Positions 26,906-42,057 of a stretch of 64,000 nucleotides of DNA are shown piece after piece. Position numbers and translations under genes: made by a program. Source of the DNA: Cellvibrionales bacterium UBA1854 (GTDB lineage: Bacteria; Pseudomonadota; Gammaproteobacteria; Pseudomonadales; Porticoccaceae); the NCBI GenBank assembly GCA_002338445.1, contig DDII01000042.1, forward strand, positions 5,023 through 69,022. The letters run 5' to 3'. Below the pieces are notes generated by a model. It saw only the letters and a list, made by a program, of their open reading frames with translations. It ran no database searches and was not told the DNA's origin. The number at the start of each line of letters is the position of its first letter. Position 1 is the first letter of the stretch.

Positions 26906-27086
26906 GCTGATTTATTTGGTTATTAAACCTCATTATCACGGTATTTTTCTTTAAATTCATAGATTTGCGGCGTTTAATGTTCCCATACTGTATTGCGTTG
27001 TAAGGGCACTTCAATTATCATATTAACGATATGGAGCGCGGAATATCTCGATTCGCGTTATCATTAGATTGGGAGGTATTACTCCA

Positions 27087-27722
27087 GTGGATATTAAGCA
27101 AGGAATTGTTTCTGATCACTCTGCCATTCCTGTTAACTCAACTCGGCGCAAATTTTTAGCGGGTGCTACGTCTGTCCTGGGCGGAATAGGTTTAATAGGA
27201 GCTTCGGTGCCTTTTGTTGCATCCTGGAAACCAAGTGCTAAAGCAAAAGCGGCGGGAGCACCCGTTAGGATTGACATAGAGAAGCTTGAGCCCGGCGGGA
27301 GAATTGTAGTGGAGTGGCGCGGAAAACCGGTTTATGTTATCCGAAGAACCAAAGAGGCACTGGATTCTGTTGCTAATTTCCCTCAACAAGCACTCAAAGA
27401 CTCGGACTCTGTGGCTGCGAATCAGCCAAGTTATGTTAGTGGTTTTGCACGAACACAACCCGGCAAGGAAGAATACCTGGTGCTAATTGGGTTGTGCACT
27501 CATCTCGGTTGCGCACCCATTTATCGCCCAGAAGTTGGAGCTGAAGATCTTGGTGGTGATTCTTGGCTTGGGGGATTCTTTTGTCCCTGTCATGGATCTA
27601 AATTCGATTTATCTGGACGAGTTTTTGCGGGAGTTCCTGCACCCACTAATCTAGAAATTCCGCCTCACTCGTATGAAACAGACTCAATTATTGTAATTGG
27701 AATTGACGCGGAGACCGCCTGA
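27087..27722 (+). CDS. petA: Ubiquinol-cytochrome c reductase Rieske iron-sulfur subunit
   Basis: Tat-like signal (TRRKFL) and Rieske boxes CTHLGC and CPCHGS. A GTG at 27087 is preceded by GGGAGG; the ORF opens at 27069. Confidence 0.92.
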   Translation: MDIKQGIVSDHSAIPVNSTRRKFLAGATSVLGGIGLIGASVPFVASWKPSAKAKAAGAPVRIDIEKLEPGGRIVVEWRGKPVYVIRRTKEALDSVANFPQQALKDSDSVAANQPSYVSGFARTQPGKEEYLVLIGLCTHLGCAPIYRPEVGAEDLGGDSWLGGFFCPCHGSKFDLSGRVFAGVPAPTNLEIPPHSYETDSIIVIGIDAETA

Positions 27723-29755
27723 TGGATAAGCATCCAGATTTTGCGAGCTGGCTAGATGCTAGGCTACCCACTCTAAAAAGAGAGTGGAATCGGCATATGG
27801 CCGAATATTATGCCCCAAAAAATTTTAACTGGATGTATTATTTTGGAGTATTGTCAATCGTAGTACTTTTGATCCAATTGGTTACTGGTGTCTGGTTACT
27901 TATGAGCTATCAAGGTTCTGCAGAACAGGCATTTGCATCAGTAGAGTACATAATGCGAGATGTAGAGTATGGCTGGATAATACGATATGCACATTCGACT
28001 GGAGCATCGGCGTTTTTTATTGTGGTGTACATGCATATGTTCCGTGGTTTAGTTTACGGTTCATACAAAGCTCCAAGAGAATTAGTTTGGGTTTTTGGCA
28101 TGTCTATCTATGTTGTGCTAATGGCAGAAGCGTTCCTTGGTTATGTGCTCCCTTGGGGTCAAATGTCTTATTGGGGCGCTCAGGTGATAATTTCGTTATT
28201 TGGAGCGATTCCGATTGTTGGAGAGGATCTAGTGCAATGGATCCGCGGTGATTATCTGATCTCAGGTATCACTCTTAACCGTTTTATGTCACTTCATGTA
28301 GTTGCCATGCCAATAATTTTAATAGCACTTGTTGCCATGCATATTATAGCGTTGCATGATGTAGGGTCTAATAATCCAGATGGAGTTTCGATTAAGAAGT
28401 ATACTGACGCTGCTGGCAAGCCTATTGACGGAATTCCATTTTACCCATATTTCGTAATTCATGACTTGGTCCCAATAACTGTTTTTTTGTTTGCGTTTTG
28501 CTCAGTCTTATTTTTTATGCCAGAAATGGGAGGATACTTTCTAGAACACGCAAATTTTGAGATAGCAAATTCGCTGAAAACCCCAGAGCACATTGCCCCA
28601 GTTTGGTATTTTACGCCCTACTACTCGATGTTGAGGGCAGTGCCCGATAAGTTGGGAGGTTTCGTCACAATGGCCGCAGCAATTGCCATACTATTCGTTT
28701 TACCGTGGCTTGATCGAAGCCCAGTCAGATCAATGCGGTATAAAGGGAATGTGAGTCGAGTGATGATTCTTCTATTTGTTACTAGCTTTATCATCCTGGG
28801 TTTTCTTGGCGTAAAAGCCCCTACTCCAGCTCGCACAATATTAGCTCAAATATGTACTATTATTTATTTCTCATACTTTATCGGCATTTATTTTTGGACG
28901 CGTTATGAGAAAACTCGCATCGAACCAGACAGAATAACGATGGATGGAGGAATTGGCACATTTAAAACGTTATGCGGCTTCGGCTTAGTAGCGTTTTTAG
29001 TTTTTGTGCCACTACGCGTTGTCGGCGCAGAAGGCAAAGATTGTGGCACAATCAATTGTGATAACTTCCGGTCCAGCTTGGGTGATGAGGCGTCTTTACA
29101 AAAAGGGGCAAAGCTTGCTGTTAATTATTGCATGGGCTGTCATTCTTTCAAGTACTCGCGTTGGGAGCGAGTGGCAGATGATTTGACGATACCGCATGAC
29201 TTAATGATGAAAAATTTGGTATTTACGGAACAGAAGATTGGCGATTTGATGCATATCGGTATGAGCGAGGAGAAAGCTGCATCTTGGTTCGGCGCGGCAC
29301 CTCCCGATTTGACCCTTGTCGCGCGATCTAGATCGCCGGCATGGATATACACTTACCTCAGAAACTTCTATGCTGATGACTCTCGTCCTTTAGGTGTCAA
29401 CAACAGAGTGTATAAAGATGTAGGAATGCCTCATGCATTGTTGGACCTACAGGGACTAACTAAATGTGCTCCAGGCCCCGTTCTGGCGAGCAACGGAGGG
29501 GTGAAAAGAGACCTGCTCACTGGTGAGGATTTGTTAGATGATGCTTGCGGGCGTTTTGAACAAATTTCCGAAGGAAGTCTCTCCCCGTCCGAGTTTGATG
29601 ATGCTGTTTATAACTTGGTAAATTTTCTAACCTACATTGCAGAGCCGATGGCACAGCAGCGCCAGCACATTGGAAAGTTGGTGCTTTTTTTCTTGGCATT
29701 ATTACTTGTATTCGTCTACCTTCTGAACCGAGAATATTGGAAGGGCATCCATTAG
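27722..29755 (+). CDS. petBC: Fused cytochrome b / cytochrome c1 of the bc1 complex (single 677-aa ORF)
   Basis: The N-terminal part (about 400 aa) is typical cytochrome b (RYAHSTGASAFF, PWGQMSYWGAQVI, PEWYF-like PVWYFTPYY). An internal hydrophobic signal-like segment follows. The c1 part has CMGCH heme motif, APPDLTL and a C-terminal TM anchor. ATG overlaps the petA TGA by 1 nt. Confidence 0.9.
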   Translation: MDKHPDFASWLDARLPTLKREWNRHMAEYYAPKNFNWMYYFGVLSIVVLLIQLVTGVWLLMSYQGSAEQAFASVEYIMRDVEYGWIIRYAHSTGASAFFIVVYMHMFRGLVYGSYKAPRELVWVFGMSIYVVLMAEAFLGYVLPWGQMSYWGAQVIISLFGAIPIVGEDLVQWIRGDYLISGITLNRFMSLHVVAMPIILIALVAMHIIALHDVGSNNPDGVSIKKYTDAAGKPIDGIPFYPYFVIHDLVPITVFLFAFCSVLFFMPEMGGYFLEHANFEIANSLKTPEHIAPVWYFTPYYSMLRAVPDKLGGFVTMAAAIAILFVLPWLDRSPVRSMRYKGNVSRVMILLFVTSFIILGFLGVKAPTPARTILAQICTIIYFSYFIGIYFWTRYEKTRIEPDRITMDGGIGTFKTLCGFGLVAFLVFVPLRVVGAEGKDCGTINCDNFRSSLGDEASLQKGAKLAVNYCMGCHSFKYSRWERVADDLTIPHDLMMKNLVFTEQKIGDLMHIGMSEEKAASWFGAAPPDLTLVARSRSPAWIYTYLRNFYADDSRPLGVNNRVYKDVGMPHALLDLQGLTKCAPGPVLASNGGVKRDLLTGEDLLDDACGRFEQISEGSLSPSEFDDAVYNLVNFLTYIAEPMAQQRQHIGKLVLFFLALLLVFVYLLNREYWKGIH

Positions 29756-32244: not shown

Positions 32245-34158
32245 CTATTTAGTAGGCACTGAACTAGTTTCCTCCTGACTGTAAGGAGAGTTAATGGGAA
32301 TGACCTTACCATTCTTGAACTTAGCCCATCCAGTTTTTCGTTTCACCTTGCCATCGATCAGATTCAAAATTCCGGTGGCCGAAAATAAGGTATTGGGCGG
32401 ATATTTTTGTTGCATTTGAGGAAATTTTCTTGAGACTATAAAAGCATCATAACCGAGGACATAGAGGTGTTTTAAAGCTGTGTGCATCTCTTTGTTGGGA
32501 GAGACCTCATCGGGTAATTGATTAGTAAGTGTCCATGGCATTGCGCAGAATTCGATACCTGATAGATCGTTATCAAGAGAAATTTGTTGTGTACCGTTGT
32601 AAATATGTGAGGTAGCATAGATCGGGAGATCGTTGGCATATAAAAAATCTAGCGACGGTTTTATTTGTCTGCCCATTGATGGAAAGCTTACGATAACTAC
32701 AAGATCTATATCTTGACGACGACGAGAATTTAATTTTAGTCGGCTATTGACGTATTTAAGCAATTCTAGTCCACGCTCCTCACTAGCATCTATATTTAGG
32801 GGCTTTTTTAGGACGGTTATAAAATCTTTTATTTGCGCGGGATATCGCACCGAATTGGTGATAATGCCTCCCCTTTTTAGCCATTTTTGTTCAAAATGAT
32901 CAATCGCCCGTCCTCCCCAGCCAGTTTCTGGTGCTATCGTTAATACGTTTCTTTTTCCTAAGAGCCACGCTCTTTGAGCAATCTGATCCATTTCATCCAA
33001 AGGAGATAAACCGAATTGAAAAAAATATTTTGGTTTTTTTTCGATATTGACTTCACTTCGATTCAGAGTAACAACGGGAACACGAAAATCTGAGAATTTT
33101 AATAAATTCTGTACATTCTCGCTTCGTGCTGGTCCGATAATCATTTCAGCTCCATCACTTATTATCTCACTATAAAGCTTTTTAATGGGTGCTCTTGTAG
33201 TGTCGTATATTTTTACCAAAGGCACACTATTACCATAGCCCCATGCGCGATAATATGCAGTTAAAAAACCGTCCAATAAAGTTTTGCTTGCCGTTAGATG
33301 CGAGTCACTCATTGGCAATAATAATGCAATAGTTTTCGCCTCTTCGCCATACAACTTGGTCAGTTGCTCTGGAGGTACTATAGCTGCCGGGTGTTGAGGC
33401 CACTTGGTTCGCCAAATAGTCGTTTTCTCTGCGCTACTAATTTGATTATTTGGCATAAACCTATGTTTTATTGCCAATTGCAACCAGCCAGATAGGTTTT
33501 TTTCGTTTGTATTTTCGTCAAGTTTGATCAGCCTATTCAAAGGAATTTGGTTAAGCATATCCCAAATTTTATTATGTATCCTTTGGAGCTTATCCTCGGG
33601 GAGTGGTTTCGATAGCTCATAGGCTTGGTGAACTCCGGCCTCGTTATTGCCAATTGATATATTTAAATCAATTAGGAGACTTATCCAAGTCACCCTTTGT
33701 TCATGAGTTTGGTTTTGAACAAGTGCTTTTAGACGCGCGTCTGATATCCAAGAGTTAAAAGCTTCATAATCATGATAATGATTCAATATCTCAGCTTTTA
33801 GTAGGCCATATATTAGGTAATTGGCATCTGAAAGCAGTGCACCATTAATCTTCTTTAACACCTCACTACATAGAAAATAATTGCCTTCATTTTTATAAAG
33901 CAAAGCGCTCTCGAGAAAAAGTCTGTTCTTAATGGTTTCATCTGCTGCTTCGGCAAGCTCATGTAGATCGAGCGCTGAGGTACGATTTTCTTGCTCGCCA
34001 AGTGTGGATTTCCTGTCCATTGATATATCATCTGTGATAGTCGTTAGAGGTGAAGATGGCGCGCATGAACACATAAAGGCTAAAATACCCATAAACACAA
34101 AACTGCGATGGATCCAAAATTTAATGATTAATATCGAATCAATTGGGACTTTATACAT
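32245..34158 (-). CDS. lpoA: Penicillin-binding protein activator LpoA
   Basis: Lipoprotein signal (FMGILAFMCSC), N-terminal TPR-like domain and C-terminal periplasmic-binding-protein-like domain. Divergent from rsmI, as in E. coli yraM/yraL. Possible starts at 34197, 34158 or 34092. Confidence 0.8.
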   Translation of the reverse strand: MYKVPIDSILIIKFWIHRSFVFMGILAFMCSCAPSSPLTTITDDISMDRKSTLGEQENRTSALDLHELAEAADETIKNRLFLESALLYKNEGNYFLCSEVLKKINGALLSDANYLIYGLLKAEILNHYHDYEAFNSWISDARLKALVQNQTHEQRVTWISLLIDLNISIGNNEAGVHQAYELSKPLPEDKLQRIHNKIWDMLNQIPLNRLIKLDENTNEKNLSGWLQLAIKHRFMPNNQISSAEKTTIWRTKWPQHPAAIVPPEQLTKLYGEEAKTIALLLPMSDSHLTASKTLLDGFLTAYYRAWGYGNSVPLVKIYDTTRAPIKKLYSEIISDGAEMIIGPARSENVQNLLKFSDFRVPVVTLNRSEVNIEKKPKYFFQFGLSPLDEMDQIAQRAWLLGKRNVLTIAPETGWGGRAIDHFEQKWLKRGGIITNSVRYPAQIKDFITVLKKPLNIDASEERGLELLKYVNSRLKLNSRRRQDIDLVVIVSFPSMGRQIKPSLDFLYANDLPIYATSHIYNGTQQISLDNDLSGIEFCAMPWTLTNQLPDEVSPNKEMHTALKHLYVLGYDAFIVSRKFPQMQQKYPPNTLFSATGILNLIDGKVKRKTGWAKFKNGKVIPINSPYSQEETSSVPTK

Positions 34159-34987
34159 TGTGGCAACACCTATTGGGAATTTAGGAGATATGACCATTCG
34201 TGGTATCCAAATTTTGAGAGATGTTACTATTGTGGCCTGCGAGAACTCTCGCCATAGTAAACTACTCCTTGAACATTATCGCATACATTGTCAAACAATA
34301 AGCTATCGAGAGCAAAACGACCAAAAGGTTTTGAAAAAAATTATGTACTATCTGTCATGCGGAGAGTCTGTGGCATTTATTTCAGATGCCGGAACTCCAC
34401 TCATTTCAGATCCAGGATATCGATTAGTGTCGAGTGCGCGTGATGCTGGTCATAATGTAATCCCAGTACCCGGCTGCTCTGCTTTAATTGCGGCAATAAG
34501 TGTTTCCGGGCTACCGCCAAACCAATTCAGATTTATAGGATTTCTATCAGCTAAGGCTTCTCAGCGCAGATCCTCTATGAAATCCTTATGCAAATGCAGC
34601 GAAACTTTAATATTTTATGAGGCGCCGCATCGAATACTTGCTACTTTGCAGGATGCTTCCCAGATCTTTGGTGCGGATCGAAATGCTTTCATAGCCCGTG
34701 AAATTAGTAAAAAGTTTGAAACATATCATCGTGCTTTACTTGGAGATCTTTTCGCACTTGTTAAGTCCGATCTAAACCAACAACGCGGCGAAATTGTGTT
34801 AATTGTTGCAGGTACACAAGAAAAACTAGAGGTTCCTGAAATTGAGTCCGAGAGAATCTTGAAGCTTTTGATGGAAGAATTGTCCCCAAGTAAAGCGGCA
34901 GCTCTAACTTCAAAGATAACAGGGCTTCAAAAAAAACTGTTATATAACAGAGCGTTGGAATCTCAAACTAAGAAAAGGAACAACTAA
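34124..34987 (+). CDS. rsmI: 16S rRNA (cytidine1402-2'-O)-methyltransferase
   Basis: N-terminus GTLYIVATPIGNLGDMT and the tetrapyrrole-methylase-fold motifs DAGTPLISDPG and GCSALIAA. The ORF track start at 33932 would read through antisense lpoA. Confidence 0.9.
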   Translation: MINIESIGTLYIVATPIGNLGDMTIRGIQILRDVTIVACENSRHSKLLLEHYRIHCQTISYREQNDQKVLKKIMYYLSCGESVAFISDAGTPLISDPGYRLVSSARDAGHNVIPVPGCSALIAAISVSGLPPNQFRFIGFLSAKASQRRSSMKSLCKCSETLIFYEAPHRILATLQDASQIFGADRNAFIAREISKKFETYHRALLGDLFALVKSDLNQQRGEIVLIVAGTQEKLEVPEIESERILKLLMEELSPSKAAALTSKITGLQKKLLYNRALESQTKKRNN

Positions 34988-35732: not shown

Positions 35733-36767
35733 TTAGGTTTCAAGCCGCCAATTTAGAGTATGTCCTGCCGCTAACGGCACTAAATAGGAATCTCCGTAAT
35801 CCATCTGCTTCGGCACTTGCCATGGATCACGAACTAATGAGATAAGTTCAGAATTTTTTTCTAAGCCATAAAATTCGGCGCCATTTATACTTGCAAATTT
35901 TTCTAACTGATCTAACGCGCCTGCTCGCTCAAAAGCTTGCGCATACAATTCGATGGCTGCATGATGGCTAAAACAACCAGCACAACCGCAGGCACTCTCT
36001 TTATTTGCGCGAGGGTGTGGCGCCGAGTCTGTCCCTAAAAAAAATTTTTTTTCTCCGCTGGTTGCGGCTTTAATAAGAGCATTTTGATGCAGGTCTCGCT
36101 TAAGAATTGGTAAACAAAAGAGATGTGGTCTGATACCACCAGCCAGCATATCATTTCTATTAAAAAGCAAGTGTTGCGGCGTGATGGTGGCGGCGATATA
36201 TTTATCGTTGTCTCTCACAAACTCAACACTGTGTTCGGTTGTGATATGCTCCAATATAATCCTCAACTCGGGAAACCTATGTTTTATTTGTGTTAGGTGA
36301 CGATCAATAAATATTTTTTCGCGGTCGAAAATATCTACCGAACTGTCTGTCACTTCTCCATGGATTTGAAGTGGTATTCCCAGTTCTTGCATAATTTCAA
36401 AGACCGCATCTAAACCATTAAGATCTGTGACGCCAGATGCAGAATTAGTTGTTGCGCCAGCTGGGTAATATTTGCAACCAAAGATCAGACCTTGATTATG
36501 TGCGGTTCTTATACATTCTATTGATGTGTTATCGGTCAGATACATAACCATTAGGGGAGTCCAGTCGCTATCAGACGGTCTATGTTTAAGTATTGAGTCA
36601 CGATACTTTTTAATTGACTCCGCCGACGTGACGGGAGGCGATAAATTTGGCATTATGATGCAGCGTTTAAAACAACGCATCGCTGCAGGAACTGTTGTTT
36701 CTAACGCGTCCTTGTCGCGAAGATGTGAGTGCCAATCATCGGGCTTTATTATTGAAATTCTGTCCAT
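35733..36767 (-). CDS. pyrC: Dihydroorotase (E. coli-type, class II)
   Basis: 344 aa. Motifs DDWHSHLRD, carboxylated-Lys region FGCKYYPAGATTNS, HGE and GTDSAPH. Confidence 0.93.
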   Translation of the reverse strand: MDRISIIKPDDWHSHLRDKDALETTVPAAMRCFKRCIIMPNLSPPVTSAESIKKYRDSILKHRPSDSDWTPLMVMYLTDNTSIECIRTAHNQGLIFGCKYYPAGATTNSASGVTDLNGLDAVFEIMQELGIPLQIHGEVTDSSVDIFDREKIFIDRHLTQIKHRFPELRIILEHITTEHSVEFVRDNDKYIAATITPQHLLFNRNDMLAGGIRPHLFCLPILKRDLHQNALIKAATSGEKKFFLGTDSAPHPRANKESACGCAGCFSHHAAIELYAQAFERAGALDQLEKFASINGAEFYGLEKNSELISLVRDPWQVPKQMDYGDSYLVPLAAGHTLNWRLET

Positions 36768-36943: not shown

Positions 36944-37597
36944 TTATTTGGCGTATTTGTCCAAATATGAGTCGATAATATTTTTTAAAGCTAAAAGACT
37001 AGCTAAGATAAAGAATGCGCCACATGGAAAATTGAAAATCAATACTTCAAAGTTCTCGCCGAAAGGCTGTATTACCCAGTTTTTGGCTACTGATCCGAAT
37101 ATTAGATGCATATTTTTAAAAATCGTACCTGCACCTAAAAGTTCACGTAATATTCCCACAACTGATATAACGACTAAAAAAGCGGTGCCGCAAACTAATC
37201 CGTCATATGCCGCTTGCACGACAGTCTTGTTGTATGCAATTACCCTTAGTCGGTCCCATATGACTCCATTAGTGGCAATGAGAGGGACGAAGATTCCTAT
37301 CGAAGTGGATAGCGCGTAGGCAAAAGCTTGCATCACTAAATCGGTAATTGTCACCAGAGTAGCGACCACTAAAATGGCAAATGGAATCTTCGTTTTTTCA
37401 GTTAGTTTTTTACGATGTAATGAAATTAGAACATTTGAACCTATTAAAATGAGAAGGGTTGTAAGTCCCAAAGTAAGCGCATTAGACAAAGTGGTAGCAA
37501 TTGCCAGCACTGGAGTCATGCCTATGAGCTTTACCAGCGTTAAGTTATTAGACCAAAGTTGTTTATTGTTTTTTTTAAAGAAGGAGGTATCGTTCAT
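36944..37597 (-). CDS. rnfE: Rnf complex subunit E homolog (Cys ligands substituted)
   Basis: Colinear with E. coli RsxE (LWSNNLTLVKLIGMTPVLA vs LWKNNSALVQLLGLCPLLA; GIFVPLIATNG vs GIFIPLIVTNC). Confidence 0.85.
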   Translation of the reverse strand: MNDTSFFKKNNKQLWSNNLTLVKLIGMTPVLAIATTLSNALTLGLTTLLILIGSNVLISLHRKKLTEKTKIPFAILVVATLVTITDLVMQAFAYALSTSIGIFVPLIATNGVIWDRLRVIAYNKTVVQAAYDGLVCGTAFLVVISVVGILRELLGAGTIFKNMHLIFGSVAKNWVIQPFGENFEVLIFNFPCGAFFILASLLALKNIIDSYLDKYAK

Positions 37598-38238
37598 TAA
37601 TTTATTCCTTCCATTTTTTTGAGTGAATCGTAGCCCCTATCAAGGATAGTCTTACTAAAGTTTAGTGTCGCGAATACCTGTCGTACAACTGCTCTCGGCG
37701 TTATGGTTGCTCCTGTAAATGAGTCAAAAGTTCCGCCATCGGGTATTAAACCCCACTCGACGTCAGTTGTGTTTGAGAGAGATCGTCCGGAAAATTGACT
37801 GATCCAAGGGCTCTTAGTGATTTCTATCTTGTCTCCTAGTCCTAGTGTTTCTTTATGGGAAGTTACGCGGACTTCAATAATATTTCCCGCCATATCAATA
37901 CTAACAAGTATTTTGATGTCGCCACTGTATCCTTCTCCAACGGCTGGAATTATCAACGCTACCGGGATGCCGTTATTCTTAACAACATGATAATCGCTGC
38001 CGTTATCAAGCCCGAGTGACCTCAAGTGCGTTTCAGGCACCGATAGTGACTTAATAAAAACGTCCCCATTATAATAACTTTTGGGTATGAGTTTCAGTAA
38101 CTTTTCCTTTTTGGACGAGAGAATATTTGAAGAAATAATTTCTTTCGTGAGGGAGTGCACAAAACCCAATACCAGCATAAATAGAATAGCAGACACACTA
38201 ACGAGCACGATTCTTCGCAGGTTTGCCTTACTTGTCAT
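37597..38238 (-). CDS. rnfG: Rnf complex subunit G homolog
   Basis: Colinear with E. coli RsxG (GYSGDIKILV, HKETLGLGDKIE, FDSFTGATITPRAV including the FMN-threonine motif). Confidence 0.88.
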   Translation of the reverse strand: MTSKANLRRIVLVSVSAILFMLVLGFVHSLTKEIISSNILSSKKEKLLKLIPKSYYNGDVFIKSLSVPETHLRSLGLDNGSDYHVVKNNGIPVALIIPAVGEGYSGDIKILVSIDMAGNIIEVRVTSHKETLGLGDKIEITKSPWISQFSGRSLSNTTDVEWGLIPDGGTFDSFTGATITPRAVVRQVFATLNFSKTILDRGYDSLKKMEGIN

Positions 38239-39260
38239 CTATTCTTTTCGCTATCAGCAATTATAACGGTATATTTATCAATCGTTGGGGCTATGAAGTT
38301 GGCTGTGAGGACTGCAAAGGCTAAGCCGTCCGGATAATCACTCCAGCCTCGCAAGAAGAAAACTAAAATTCCAATGAGAATTCCAAAGGTAAGACGACCA
38401 GCTGCGCTCGTTGCAGAGGATACAGGATCAGTAATTATAAAAAAAGCGCCGATCATTGTCGCCCCGCTGAAAAGGTGGAAGATTGGGGACCCTAAACTCG
38501 CAGAGCTCCCAGAATCCCAAAAAACAAGTGATAAAATTGCGATGCTTCCTAACATTCCAGCGGGTGCATGCCAGGTAATTATTTTGGAGATGATTAAGAA
38601 CAAACCACCCAAAAGAAAACCTAGGTTAACCCATTCCCAACCAACTCCGGCCCACCCACTCTCCGAAAAGATTTCTTTTTCGGAGTAAAGTTGGGTTACA
38701 AGAAGACCATTATTTTGCTTGAAAACCTCAAGCGGGGTTGCGCCAGTAATACCATCGAATTGCTGTATGTTACCAATTATAATCATGATCGAATCAATCA
38801 GCGTCAGGTTCTGGGCCTCGCTAGAGTAAGATGGGTCCGCAGCAACCCATTGACTCATTGAAAAAGGAAAACATAATAATAACGTTGCGTAGCCCACCAT
38901 TGCAGGGTTGAAAGGGTTGGCTCCGAGGCCGCCATAGGCATGTTTTCCTATCAGAATTGCTACAAAGCACCCTATGATGGGTAACCACCAGGGGCAAAGA
39001 GGAGGTAGTGATAAGCCAATTAAGACGGCAGTTAAAACGGTGCTAAAGTCTTGCAGGCAATAATTAAGCGATTTTTCTCTAAGGCTGAGTGCAACAGCCT
39101 CAAAGATTACTGAACTGAAAATGCAGATAAAAACGTTTAAAGAAACACCCCAACCGAAGTGCCAAGAGAGTGCTAAGAAACCAGGGAAACAAGCTAAAAT
39201 GACTAGCAGGGCTATTTGGTCACCGGTTCGATCGGTGGCATTGAGCATAAAACTAGACAT
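38235..39260 (-). CDS. rnfD: Rnf complex subunit D homolog
   Basis: Colinear with E. coli RsxD (YGGLGANPFNPAM, DGITGATPLE flavinylation motif, LFSGATMIGAFFIITDPV, YPDGLAFAVL). Confidence 0.9.
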   Translation of the reverse strand: MSSFMLNATDRTGDQIALLVILACFPGFLALSWHFGWGVSLNVFICIFSSVIFEAVALSLREKSLNYCLQDFSTVLTAVLIGLSLPPLCPWWLPIIGCFVAILIGKHAYGGLGANPFNPAMVGYATLLLCFPFSMSQWVAADPSYSSEAQNLTLIDSIMIIIGNIQQFDGITGATPLEVFKQNNGLLVTQLYSEKEIFSESGWAGVGWEWVNLGFLLGGLFLIISKIITWHAPAGMLGSIAILSLVFWDSGSSASLGSPIFHLFSGATMIGAFFIITDPVSSATSAAGRLTFGILIGILVFFLRGWSDYPDGLAFAVLTANFIAPTIDKYTVIIADSEKNR

Positions 39261-39845
39261 TCACATTATCCCACGGAATCCAGAAAAAGCCATAGACATT
39301 AGTCCCATTGTAATCAAGGCAATGGGACCTCCTTGGAGGTGAATGGGGATGTGTGGGCCAGTTATTTTTTGCTGTAGGTTTGCAAATGAAATTAATACGA
39401 TGGAAAAACCAATTCCCGCGCCAAGGCCATGAGACGTTGCTTGAAAAACTGACGTAACGTTCTCAGAATTCTGCAAGGCGATTCCTAAAACTGCTGAATT
39501 AATAAATAAAAGTGGAAAGAAAATATTAAAAATTTTATCGGAGCACACGTTATATTTCTTGATAAAAAATTTGTGAAGCCATACGACTGCAGTAATTAAT
39601 AGCATGAAGGAAAGGGTGCGTAAATAAACAAGGTGTAGCGACTCAAGAATTATTTTTTCAAAACAATAATTAACGCCCGCGCTAATCGTCATCACTGAAG
39701 TTGTTATCAGGGATATAATGGGAACGGCTTTCCTATCTTCAGAAAGACGCATAGAATCAGACACGCCTAGGGTTTGCACTAATACATAGTTATTGCTGAG
39801 GCTAGCCACAAAAATTAAGTAAGTGAATTCTTCTATTGTGAGCAT
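39261..39845 (-). CDS. rnfA: Rnf complex subunit A homolog (Cys ligands substituted)
   Basis: Colinear with E. coli RsxA (NNYVLVQTLGVSD vs NNFVLVKFLGLCP; LFINSAVLGIAL vs ITTNCAVLGVAL; C-terminal GPIALITMGLMSMAFSGF). Directly downstream of metG. Confidence 0.85.
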   Translation of the reverse strand: MLTIEEFTYLIFVASLSNNYVLVQTLGVSDSMRLSEDRKAVPIISLITTSVMTISAGVNYCFEKIILESLHLVYLRTLSFMLLITAVVWLHKFFIKKYNVCSDKIFNIFFPLLFINSAVLGIALQNSENVTSVFQATSHGLGAGIGFSIVLISFANLQQKITGPHIPIHLQGGPIALITMGLMSMAFSGFRGIM

Positions 39846-39911
39846 CCTTTATCTCCAATAAACCAGAAATGTCAGCACCCAATTTTGCCAAGGTTTGACT
39901 CTTCAATGATT

Positions 39912-41930
39912 TTAGGTTACTCGCTGTCCCGGAGAGGCTCCAATGTCAGGTTCAAGTAAATAGATACCGGTTTCTGAGCTTGCGGCAAGCACCATTCCAT
40001 GAGAAGTACCAAATCGCATTTTGCGAGGAGCTATATTCGCTATCATCAATGTAAGCCTACCTTCCAGTTGCTCAGGGCGATAAGCAGATTTTATACCTGA
40101 AAAGACTTGTCTTTTTTCCGTGCCGATATTCAATGTAAGTTTAAGTAACTTATCTGATCCTTGAACTGTCTCAGCTTTAATGATTTTTGCGATCCGGAGA
40201 TCCATTTTTTGAAATTCTTCAATGTTGACCTCTTCAACTGCTTTTAGGTTGACTACGGCCTTGATTTCAGTTGTTGATGTTTCGTTTGAATCGACACTAT
40301 TTGATGCTAGCATTGAATTGATTGATTTTTTGTCGATTCTTTTGAGCATAGGTGAGAAAGTTTCAATATGGTGATTTTTCAGTGGCTCAGTTATACCACT
40401 CCAATTTAATTCATCATTCAAAAATATCTCACTGGCTTTAGCTGTCTTGGGAAGGATCGGCTTTAGGTAGATCATGAGTATGCGGAACAAATTGATTCCC
40501 AATGAACAGATTTCTTGCACTTCTTGCTTGTTTCTCGGATCTTTATTTAATTTCCAAGGCTCAGACTCCGCGATGTATTCATTTATTGAATCTGCCTGAG
40601 CCATGATCAATCGAACTGCTCCACTAAAATCTCGATTTTCGTAAAGACTAGCAATCTTATCGGAAACACCCGATACCTTTTCCAAAAGTTTAGCATTATG
40701 GATCTTTGCAGACAAAACGCCAGCATTACCATGGGTTATAAATTTTGCGCATCTACTGGCAATGTTCACCACTTTCCCAACGAGGTCACTGTTGACTTTT
40801 TGAACAAAATCATCGAGATTTAAATCCACATCATCGATTGAGCGAGATAGCTTACTCGCGTAGTAGTATCGGAGATATTCGGGATTTAAATGTTCTAAAT
40901 AGCTTCTTGCATTTATAAAGGTTCCTCTAGATTTGGACATTTTGAAACCATTTATTGTTACAAAGCCATGCACCGCAATTTCGGTGGGTGTGCGGAAACC
41001 AGTGCTTTTGAGAATGGCGGGCCAAAATAAAGCGTGGAAATTGACTATATCTTTGCCGATAAAATGATAGAGCTCTGCAGTGCTTTCGGGGCTCCAGAAA
41101 GCATCGAAATTGATATCATGTTTTTTGCATAAAGCTTTAAAACTGGCCATATAACCAATTGGTGCATCAAGCCAAACGTAAAAATATTTATCTAATGTGT
41201 CTGGAATTTTAAAGCCAAAATAAGGAGCATCTCGACTTATATCCCAATCTTTCAGGCCATCGTTTAGCCACTCACGCAACTTATTAGACACCTCTGTTTG
41301 TAAATGTCTGTCCGAGGTCCAAGATTTCAAGTAATCAGTAAATTCTGATAGCTTAAAAAAATAGTGTAGCGATTCTTTATTAATAGGAGTAGTGCCAGAG
41401 AGGACTGATATAGGGTTAATTAATTCTGTGGCTTGATATGTAGCACCGCAGGATTCACAATTATCACCATACTGATCAAGCGCCTTACACCTGGGACACT
41501 GTCCTTTTATATAACGGTCTGCTAAAAAGATTTTTTTCTTCGAATCGTAAGACTGCACAACGGCTCTTTGAGTGATGTAACCTCGGTCGACTAAACGTTT
41601 GTATATTAAATTGACTAATGTTTTGTTTTCATCAGTATGTGTAGAGTGATAGTGGTCAACATTAATCAAGAAGTCAGAAAAGTCAGCTTCGTGGGATGCT
41701 TGCATTTTCTTTATGTGTTCTTCCGGAGAAATCTTTTGCTCGTCCGCTTTTAGCATTATTGCCGTGCCGTGCGCATCATCGGCACACACGTAGTAACAAT
41801 TGTTACCGCGTAATTTTTGGAATCGGGTCCAAATGTCTGTTTGCGTGTACTCAAGTATGTGCCCAAGATGCAAAGGCGCATTAGCGTATGGGAGCGCGCT
41901 GGTGACAAGTATGTTTCGGACAGCAGACAT
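39912..41930 (-). CDS. metG: Methionine-tRNA ligase with C-terminal tRNA-binding domain
   Basis: HIGH-type motif ([11 protein letters not shown]), KMSKS, zinc knuckle CPRC...CESC and a C-terminal EMAP/Trbp111-like domain. Met at 41930 matches canonical N-termini; the ORF opens at 41972. Confidence 0.95.
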
Positions 41931-42057
41931 TAAGGTTGATGGCCAGACTAAGAAAATAAGAACTTTAATCATATATAGTTTGAACTAAATTTTCATTTGT
42001 TATTCTTGCAAATATTGTTAGTTTATTAGAGGGAAATTATATTTTGCGGGGTGAATT

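Follow-up and report, generated by a model that had tools for sequence, protein, structure and literature searches.

The Rnf complex is a six-subunit ferredoxin:NAD+ oxidoreductase and redox-driven ion pump, and its four membrane subunits (RnfA, RnfD, RnfG and RnfE) were described in a 2025 review as the energy-converting core of the enzyme, with strictly conserved cofactors (PMC12174285). In Acetobacterium woodii, C25 and C113 of RnfA together with C25 and C108 of RnfE ligate an intramembrane [2Fe-2S] cluster named 'AE1', and a variant without AE1 lost two Fe and all ferredoxin:NAD+ activity (PMC11889175). The same study tied T110, T111 and E88 of RnfA and R67 and E115 of RnfE to Na+ binding or gating, and R154 and K32 of RnfA to the docking of RnfB (PMC11889175). 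Naturally remodelled relatives are also known. The Na+-translocating NADH:quinone oxidoreductase (Na+-NQR) arose from Rnf when RnfB was lost and the homologue of RnfC, NqrA, gave up its cofactors (PMC4014512), which is thus a precedent for remodelling of the peripheral arms. A two-subunit 'NQR/RNF-like' system, consisting of an RnfD-like and an RnfG-like protein, was proposed to pass electrons one way to extracytosolic acceptors (PMC8238504, PMC11334425); because that survey required RnfB in its definition of RNF, gene clusters without it would have gone unclassified. Here, we analysed a 64-kb stretch of contig DDII01000042.1 (hereafter the window) from UBA1854, a free-living marine bacterium of the family Porticoccaceae that belongs to an abundant ocean lineage. 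The window carries, on its minus strand, an intact operon of only rnfA, rnfD, rnfG and rnfE (ADGE). This operon has been kept by selection; it encodes no ligand of the cluster shared by RnfA and RnfE (the A/E cluster), its rnfB and rnfC were deleted in place, and its flavin sites are conserved. The cysteine-less proteins are written RnfA' and RnfE'.

Six-frame open reading frames (ORFs) between 36944 and 41972 gave the minus-strand order metG, rnfA, rnfD, rnfG, rnfE, pyrC and rnt, with no frameshifts. The stop codon of rnfA directly abuts the start codon of rnfD (ATG TGA ATG), rnfD and rnfG overlap by 4 nt (ATGA) and rnfG and rnfE by 1 nt (TAATG), and the four membrane genes remain translationally coupled. 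The gene coordinates, order and junctions given by an earlier interpretation of this DNA, made from the letters alone (the sequence-only reading), agree exactly with these ORFs. Its claim that rnfB and rnfC are absent was also borne out, with no homologue of either gene in the operon or anywhere in the window; nqr genes, including those for NqrA and NqrF, were likewise not found within the window. By Pfam and NCBIfam profiles, RnfA and RnfE belong to the Rnf-Nqr family, RnfD to NQR2_RnfD_RnfE and RnfG to FMN_bind/RnfG. The curated cut-offs were exceeded by RnfD (362.5 bits vs 207 for TIGR01946) and RnfG (143.3 vs 102 bits for TIGR01947; E = 4.9e-15 for PF04205). RnfE passed the cut-off of NF009070 (209.1 vs 184 bits) and fell short of that of TIGR01948 (181.8 vs 213.4 bits), and RnfA scored far below both of its cut-offs (141.6 vs 229.3 bits for TIGR01943; 145.1 vs 240 bits for NF003481). 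All four proteins scored much higher with Rnf models than with Nqr models (for RnfD, 362 vs 120-130 bits), and phmmer matched the four membrane subunits to solved Rnf structures with E-values of 1e-24 to 1e-51. Of the six subunits that define Rnf, only A, D, G and E are encoded together at this locus.

The same operon occurs in relatives. A scan with one genome per GTDB species returned 72 loci, of which the nearest are from Porticoccaceae: the single-cell genome AG-907-E05 and the metagenome-assembled genome (MAG) SP293 (L007 and L009; 90% RnfD identity), followed by the MAGs MED754 (L008; 80%) and NP1052 (L010; 76%). All four species have ADGE with the same Ser/Ser/Thr/Gly at the ligand columns and with protein lengths within 2 amino acids (aa). 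Moreover, an identical RnfD protein is encoded on at least 22 independently assembled marine contigs from Tara Oceans and other projects, and the order metG-A-D-G-E-pyrC was found in all six of those contig loci that were displayed. An assembly or binning artefact, in which a mis-join of rnfA to rnfD dropped rnfB and rnfC, had been named as a possible pitfall. We found no point in its favour and rejected it, its probability being negligible, because the junction recurs with intact stop and start codons on these at least 22 contigs from different projects and samples, in one single-cell genome (AG-907-E05) and in three MAGs, each from a different species.

To locate the ligand columns, the proteins were aligned by phmmer to the structures 9ERI (A. 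woodii), 7ZC6 (Clostridium tetanomorphum) and 8AHX (Azotobacter vinelandii). In RnfA, LGV-S29-DSM aligned on LGI-C-PFL and FIN-S117-AVLG on TTN-C-AVLG; in RnfE, IGM-T28-PVLA aligned on LGM-C-PTLA and ATN-G111-VIW on VVN-C-IIL. The predicted substitution of all four iron-sulfur (Fe-S) cysteines therefore holds in the structure-based alignment, which puts S29, S117, T28 and G111 on the ligand columns. These columns are Cys in 52/52 RnfA and 55-56/56 RnfE sequences of canonical relatives, the lone exception being an alignment gap. The changes extend beyond the ligands: the residue after Ser29 is Asp in place of an invariant Pro (P26) of canonical RnfA, and besides P26 the canonical-invariant T110 and R154 and the near-invariant E88 and T111 are replaced in RnfA, as are R67 and D/E115 in RnfE.

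The order in which these parts were lost could be traced in neighbouring lineages. Three more Porticoccaceae loci (L019, L048 and L011) fall into one group with the window clade in the RnfD tree. Both L019 and L048 keep rnfB and rnfC, with 87-91% of the canonical invariant columns, every Fe-S cysteine motif and the NADH-site motif. Despite this, L019 has lost three of the four A/E ligands (its columns read S,T,S,C), and the RnfA columns of L048, whose rnfE lies off the contig, read S,T. Because ligands were lost in these two loci while rnfB and rnfC are largely intact, cluster loss came first and loss of rnfB and rnfC later. In L011 (9163-9992; ligand columns S,C,S,C), only a 61-aa ORF and a 215-aa ORF lie between rnfA and rnfD, and the latter matches the C-terminal tail, which is non-catalytic, of RnfC from L019 (E = 1e-8). 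With this remnant left behind, rnfB and the catalytic portion of rnfC were thus removed by deletion at this very site. The ADGE arrangement was also found in two SAR92 single-cell genomes (L056 and L057), with G,S,S,S at the ligand columns. In the metG tree, SAR92 is sister to the group containing L019, which nests between two ADGE groups; given that L019 has both rnfB and rnfC, the pair was lost on at least two occasions. The losses probably number three, as judged from single-gene neighbour-joining trees, which are weak evidence for the exact number.

These relatives also bear on whether the operon could still encode part of a working Rnf, with rnfB and rnfC located in another part of the genome and the A/E cluster held by Ser/Thr or by other cysteines (C61 of RnfA; C136 and C192 of RnfE). 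In its favour, RnfE C136 and C192 are invariant across the five ADGE genomes (the window and its four Porticoccaceae relatives), and RnfA position 61 is Cys in the four of them that are readable there (L007 has an N base) and in L011. However, each alternative ligand, a possibility that the sequence-only reading had raised against itself, was rejected. C61 is absent from L019 and SAR92. C136 and C192 are confined to the five closest genomes, being absent from L011, L019 and SAR92, and their position in the sequence suggests that they sit in TM5 and TM6, outer transmembrane helices that are remote from the half-helices holding the cluster at the centre. RnfA C101 varies even within the window clade and is missing from L019 and SAR92. 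Furthermore, no ligand column retains Cys in the window clade, and we know of no natural Fe-S cluster without any Cys ligand. The RnfC tail in L011 shows deletion in place, not relocation; the RnfB-docking R154 of RnfA is replaced in 4/5 ADGE genomes; and position 32 of RnfA, K32 in A. woodii and not conserved among canonical sequences, is Glu here. A working Rnf is thus very unlikely. Because the A. woodii mutant without the A/E cluster is inactive and the electron path is U-shaped, ADGE should be unable to act as a ferredoxin:NAD+ oxidoreductase or a canonical redox-driven pump, as the sequence-only reading had also concluded. It almost certainly does something other than the textbook Rnf reaction.

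In contrast to the membrane pair, the flavin sites are preserved, in agreement with the claim that the covalent flavin mononucleotide (FMN) motifs are intact. RnfD keeps T175, the covalent-FMN site, as well as the riboflavin-binding N118 and D278, and RnfG keeps T178, its covalent-FMN site. The FMN threonines were found in 78/78 RnfD and 77/77 RnfG sequences surveyed, and the acceptor motif of the flavin transferase ApbE, D-x-x-[S/T]-G-A-[S/T], is matched by FDSFTGAT in RnfG and FDGITGAT in RnfD. PF03116 is the sole match of RnfD, with no PF00175 NAD-binding domain fused to it. As a separate observation on this protein, RnfD of the clade has its own cysteines at positions 24, 46, 98 and 130, where canonical sequences have Thr, Ala/Gly, Val/Ile and Ser, respectively; they are common to L011 and in part to L019. 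These cysteines were considered as candidate ligands of a new Fe-S site in RnfD. The protein contains many cysteines in these genomes (5-9), but canonical sequences have 0-7 and only L011 and L019, with 8-9, go beyond that.

Cysteine-less RnfA proteins were also found far outside Porticoccaceae. A HMMER search with the window RnfA against 1.84 billion cluster representatives yielded 1937 relatives; about 90 of the best 150 lack one or both ligand cysteines, a sample that is biased to the query and hence a lower bound, not a frequency. The replacements in cysteine-less lineages are diverse (site 1: S, G, D, T, A, E, Y, P, N, Q, K or R; site 2: S, T, G, A or V). In the Pseudomonas fluorescens lineage, which includes P. 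gingeri, P. chlororaphis, P. fluorescens, P. frederiksbergensis and P. brassicacearum, all 120 RnfA relatives among the matches listed lack both cysteines, with D/A at the two sites in 118 of them; they are annotated as 'Rnf-Nqr domain containing protein'. Two genomes of this lineage (L053:8486-12737; L081:7001-11642) have the order metG-rnfA'-rnfB-rnfD-rnfG-rnfE'-nth, with no rnfC. Their RnfB has no N-terminal membrane anchor and carries a long Ala/Gln/Lys-rich C-terminal tail, the FMN motif of their RnfD is AQAT, not TGAT, their RnfE' is degenerate, and their RnfD and RnfG stay close to the canonical form, with 92% and 89% of the invariant columns kept, respectively. No description of this cysteine-less Pseudomonas operon was found in the searched literature. 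The A/E cluster has thus been lost repeatedly, and not always together with rnfB and rnfC, ADGE being the most reduced form seen.

Other arrangements turned up among the loci. A Firmicute-like operon (L083:2765-8529) has the order rnfC-D-G (375 aa)-E-A', with an unannotated 285-aa protein at the usual place of rnfB. At L084:4013-6349, an orphan cysteine-less rnfA' lies next to metG, with rnfC on the opposite strand, and L085:138-6269 has a cysteine-less RnfA within a complete A'-B-C-D-G-E set. A distinct reduction of Rnf was seen in marine 'Pseudomonadales bacterium' MAGs (L065:9108-9998; L066, L067, L068, L077 and L069) with the order metG-rnfA-X-rnfD-rnfG-rnfE-nth, where X is a fusion of about 296 aa joining RnfB to the two-[4Fe-4S] domain of RnfC, with no NADH/FMN module. 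These MAGs retain the four A/E ligand cysteines, and the electron path of such an operon would start and finish in one Fe-S protein.

We then asked where selection acts on ADGE, using dN/dS, the ratio of nonsynonymous to synonymous substitution rates (Nei-Gojobori method; dN < dS assessed by the Fisher test). For the four rnf genes, dN/dS was 0.16-0.39 against the 90% relatives (dS 0.14-0.25) and 0.16-0.25 against the 76-80% relatives (dS 0.55-1.0), with p-values for dN < dS from 7e-4 to 2e-25, compared with 0.05-0.20 for five neighbouring housekeeping genes. The rnf genes are therefore constrained, roughly two-fold less than core genes. No stop or frameshift was present in any lineage copy examined, and the proposal that the operon is selected and not randomly decaying was upheld. 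The constraint is unevenly spread. Among the canonical near-invariant columns (at least 95% invariant in 52-61 canonical sequences), the window retains 60/64 in RnfD and 25/27 in RnfG (about 93% each), compared with 34/70 in RnfA (49%) and 32/48 in RnfE (67%), and the same excess of D/G over A/E retention was seen in SAR92 and Pseudomonas. At 17 canonical-invariant columns of RnfA and 11 of RnfE, a different residue is fixed in the five ADGE genomes. Thus, the flavin module of RnfD and RnfG is essentially canonical, and RnfA and RnfE are freed from their old role yet under selection.

A slowly decaying vestige, whose function ended with the cluster ligands and whose four membrane genes were left over after the deletion of rnfB and rnfC, would account for the loss of 51% and 33% of the canonical invariant residues from RnfA and RnfE, for dN/dS values about twice those of the neighbours, and for the series from ABCDGE through a C remnant to ADGE, which resembles progressive gene loss. 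We nevertheless consider it distinctly unlikely. The dN/dS values are highly significantly below 1. At dS of about 0.55-1.0, a neutral ORF of 585-1026 nt should have gathered many stops, and none was seen, with lengths held within 2 aa. Translational coupling is kept, RnfD and RnfG are nearly canonical, and A'DGE' is retained in every lineage examined whatever the fate of rnfB and rnfC, including SAR92 and the whole P. fluorescens lineage. Overall, the earlier interpretation of the locus as a selected four-subunit membrane remnant is supported.

What such a remnant does can be proposed from the parts that it keeps. Without RnfB, RnfC and the A/E cluster, the U-shaped path from ferredoxin to NAD+ and redox-driven ion pumping would be impossible. 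The working part would be the flavin pair, namely RnfD with its covalent FMN and riboflavin pocket, and RnfG with its covalent FMN on a mobile periplasmic domain; both proteins would need flavinylation by ApbE. RnfA' and RnfE' would survive mainly as a membrane scaffold that seats RnfG. The complex may then serve as a short relay of flavins on the periplasmic side of the inner membrane, swapping electrons with partners encoded outside the operon; RnfG might meet a periplasmic acceptor or donor, and the riboflavin site of RnfD a redox carrier located in the cytoplasm or the membrane. We put the probability at about one half that the retained activity is such a relay, linking riboflavin, the FMN of RnfD and the FMN of RnfG, with A' and E' as scaffold and the partners elsewhere. 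Several observations count against this proposal. No electron donor or acceptor was found for ADGE, and in the loci compared no conserved new partner gene adjoins the operon in the stead of rnfB or rnfC. RnfD has neither the N-terminal quinone-binding helices of NqrB nor an NAD-binding domain, which leaves electron entry or exit on the cytoplasmic side unexplained. No apbE was found within the window. The dN/dS of the rnf genes, about twice that of the neighbours, indicates weaker constraint than in core genes, and the conserved FMN sites could reflect a structural, not a redox, role of the flavins.

The last point leads to a non-redox alternative, in which A'DGE' is kept for another membrane function, for example ion or solute conduction via RnfA'/RnfE' or RnfD, with the flavins being structural only. 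Canonical RnfA/E forms an alternating-access, water-accessible ion path, and RnfD is a relative of the ammonium (Amt) and urea transporters. At the former cluster site, the centre of the helix breaks now has Ser, Asp, Thr and Gly, small and polar replacements that do not vary among the five ADGE genomes, and the 17 RnfA and 11 RnfE columns refixed to a new residue suggest new constraint, not drift. However, across independent lineages the replacement residues do not converge, which resembles the loss of a site and not the gain of a defined one; the Na+-coordinating or gating residues (T110, T111 and E88 of RnfA; R67 and E115 of RnfE) are themselves gone; and it is the flavin subunits RnfD and RnfG, rather than RnfA and RnfE, that are most strongly conserved. 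We therefore regard this alternative as unlikely, and return to the flavin relay. If that proposal is extended to the other lineages, cluster-less Rnf may be a widespread and repeatedly evolved class of flavin-only membrane complexes with a role other than ferredoxin:NAD+ oxidoreduction, possibly electron delivery or acceptance at the periplasmic face, with ADGE as its smallest version; once the cluster was gone, RnfB and RnfC would have become dispensable and been lost repeatedly, with A'DGE' always kept, both in abundant ocean bacteria (the window clade and SAR92) and in the tractable P. fluorescens group. We advance this generalization tentatively, as a possibility that falls short of even odds.

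The features of the locus are listed in Table 1.

Table 1 Features of the ADGE locus and its flanks (positions in the window)
Feature	Position	Strand	Remarks
metG (methionyl-tRNA synthetase)	39912-41972	minus	conserved upstream neighbour of rnf operons in this order
metG-rnfA spacer, 66 nt	39846-39911	minus	ribosome-binding site GGAG, about 7 nt upstream of the rnfA start codon
rnfA'	39261-39845	minus	194 aa, PF02508; both [2Fe-2S] ligand cysteines gone
Ser29 of RnfA', codon TCT	39759-39761	minus	column of ligand Cys25 (A. woodii numbering)
Ser117 of RnfA', codon TCA	39495-39497	minus	column of ligand Cys113
rnfD	38235-39260	minus	341 aa, PF03116; above TIGR01946 cut-off
Thr175 of RnfD	38736-38738	minus	covalent-FMN attachment site, motif DGITGATPL
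Asn118 of RnfD	38907-38909	minus	equivalent to riboflavin-binding N123 of A. woodii RnfD
Asp278 of RnfD	38427-38429	minus	equivalent to riboflavin-binding D249 of A. woodii RnfD
rnfG	37597-38238	minus	213 aa; N-terminal membrane anchor and periplasmic FMN_bind domain PF04205; above TIGR01947 cut-off
Thr178 of RnfG	37705-37707	minus	covalent-FMN attachment site, motif DSFTGATITP
rnfE'	36944-37597	minus	217 aa, PF02508; both ligand cysteines gone
Thr28 of RnfE', codon ACT	37514-37516	minus	column of ligand Cys25
Gly111 of RnfE', codon GGA	37265-37267	minus	column of ligand Cys108
pyrC (dihydroorotase)	35733-36767	minus	downstream neighbour; operon end, 176-nt spacer

No terminator-like site was found in the spacer between metG and rnfA, a promoter/terminator scan gave no signal above shuffled background, and the tRNA and Rfam scans of the window returned no match. 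The genes downstream of the operon differ between lineages, with pyrC and rnt in the window clade vs glyoxalase-like and PhzF-like genes in SAR92. The gene nth, whose absence the sequence-only reading had counted among the losses, is indeed not downstream of rnfE here. In a comparison of loci L012-L052 with L053-L078, it comes after rnfE in Pseudomonas, Halomonas, Aeromonadaceae and a number of marine Pseudomonadales, and adjoins rnfE in none of the Cellvibrionales loci, canonical or reduced; its absence is thus a trait of all Cellvibrionales loci examined, and we rejected it as part of the reduction. The gene content of the window is housekeeping only (bc1 complex, isc operon, purine genes and similar). 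Its bc1 complex (27069-29755) is encoded by a gene for the Rieske protein and, after it, one 677-aa ORF in which the domains of cytochrome b and cytochrome c1 are fused. For the divergent genes lpoA/LppC-like (32245-34197, minus) and rsmI (33932-34987, plus), the longest ORFs overlap by about 265 nt, which is probably a start-codon artefact of the ORF listing, as related contigs are called with later starts.

The significance of the operon lies in the contrast with the view of the core as strictly conserved: here the cluster ligands are gone and both cytoplasmic arms are deleted, yet the genes are conserved across species. A functional remnant would reveal what the RnfD-RnfG flavin pair can do by itself; it would amount to a dissection of the complex made by nature and to a present-day parallel of the exchange of arms that turned Rnf into Nqr. 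In practice, where genome annotation or a metabolic model scores 'Rnf present' on a match to rnfA, rnfD, rnfG or rnfE, ferredoxin:NAD+ coupling will be misassigned to such genomes. The analogue in Pseudomonas makes the question directly testable by genetics. In line with the suggestion that no ADGE-only derivative of Rnf had been described, the searched literature contained no description of an ADGE-only operon, of incomplete or partial rnf operons, or of Rnf in SAR92 or Porticoccaceae.

Compared with the canonical, Na+/H+-translocating RnfABCDGE complex (Rsx in Escherichia coli), ADGE shares the gene order and the metG neighbour seen in related gammaproteobacteria, as well as the covalent-FMN threonines of RnfD and RnfG and the riboflavin ligands of RnfD. 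It differs in having no RnfB or RnfC in the operon or the window, none of the four [2Fe-2S] cysteines, and replacements at RnfA/E residues tied to Na+ binding, gating and RnfB docking; by analogy with the A. woodii mutant without the A/E cluster, it should be unable to catalyse ferredoxin:NAD+ oxidoreduction. Na+-NQR (NqrABCDEF) has the same four-subunit core, with NqrE, NqrD, NqrB and NqrC corresponding to RnfA, RnfE, RnfD and RnfG, respectively, whereas its four cysteines and their cluster, its NqrF input module and the quinone site formed by the N-terminal helices of NqrB have no counterpart in ADGE. The two-subunit NQR/RNF-like system is likewise a naturally reduced Rnf/Nqr derivative, in which an RnfD/NqrB-like membrane protein is paired with a flavinylated extracytosolic RnfG/NqrC-like protein, and it too has been proposed to work with flavins only. 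Its RnfD-like protein, however, is fused to a cytosolic PF00175 NAD-binding domain and has no flavinylation threonine, RnfA/E homologues are missing from it, and it occurs mainly in Actinobacteria and the Candidate Phyla Radiation; in ADGE, RnfD is unfused and has the threonine, A' and E' are kept, and there is no cytoplasmic input module. Finally, the operon of the P. fluorescens lineage, which unlike ADGE retains RnfB, has nth after rnfE and carries AQAT in RnfD, resembles it in its position downstream of metG, its cysteine-less RnfA', its lack of RnfC and its near-canonical RnfD and RnfG.

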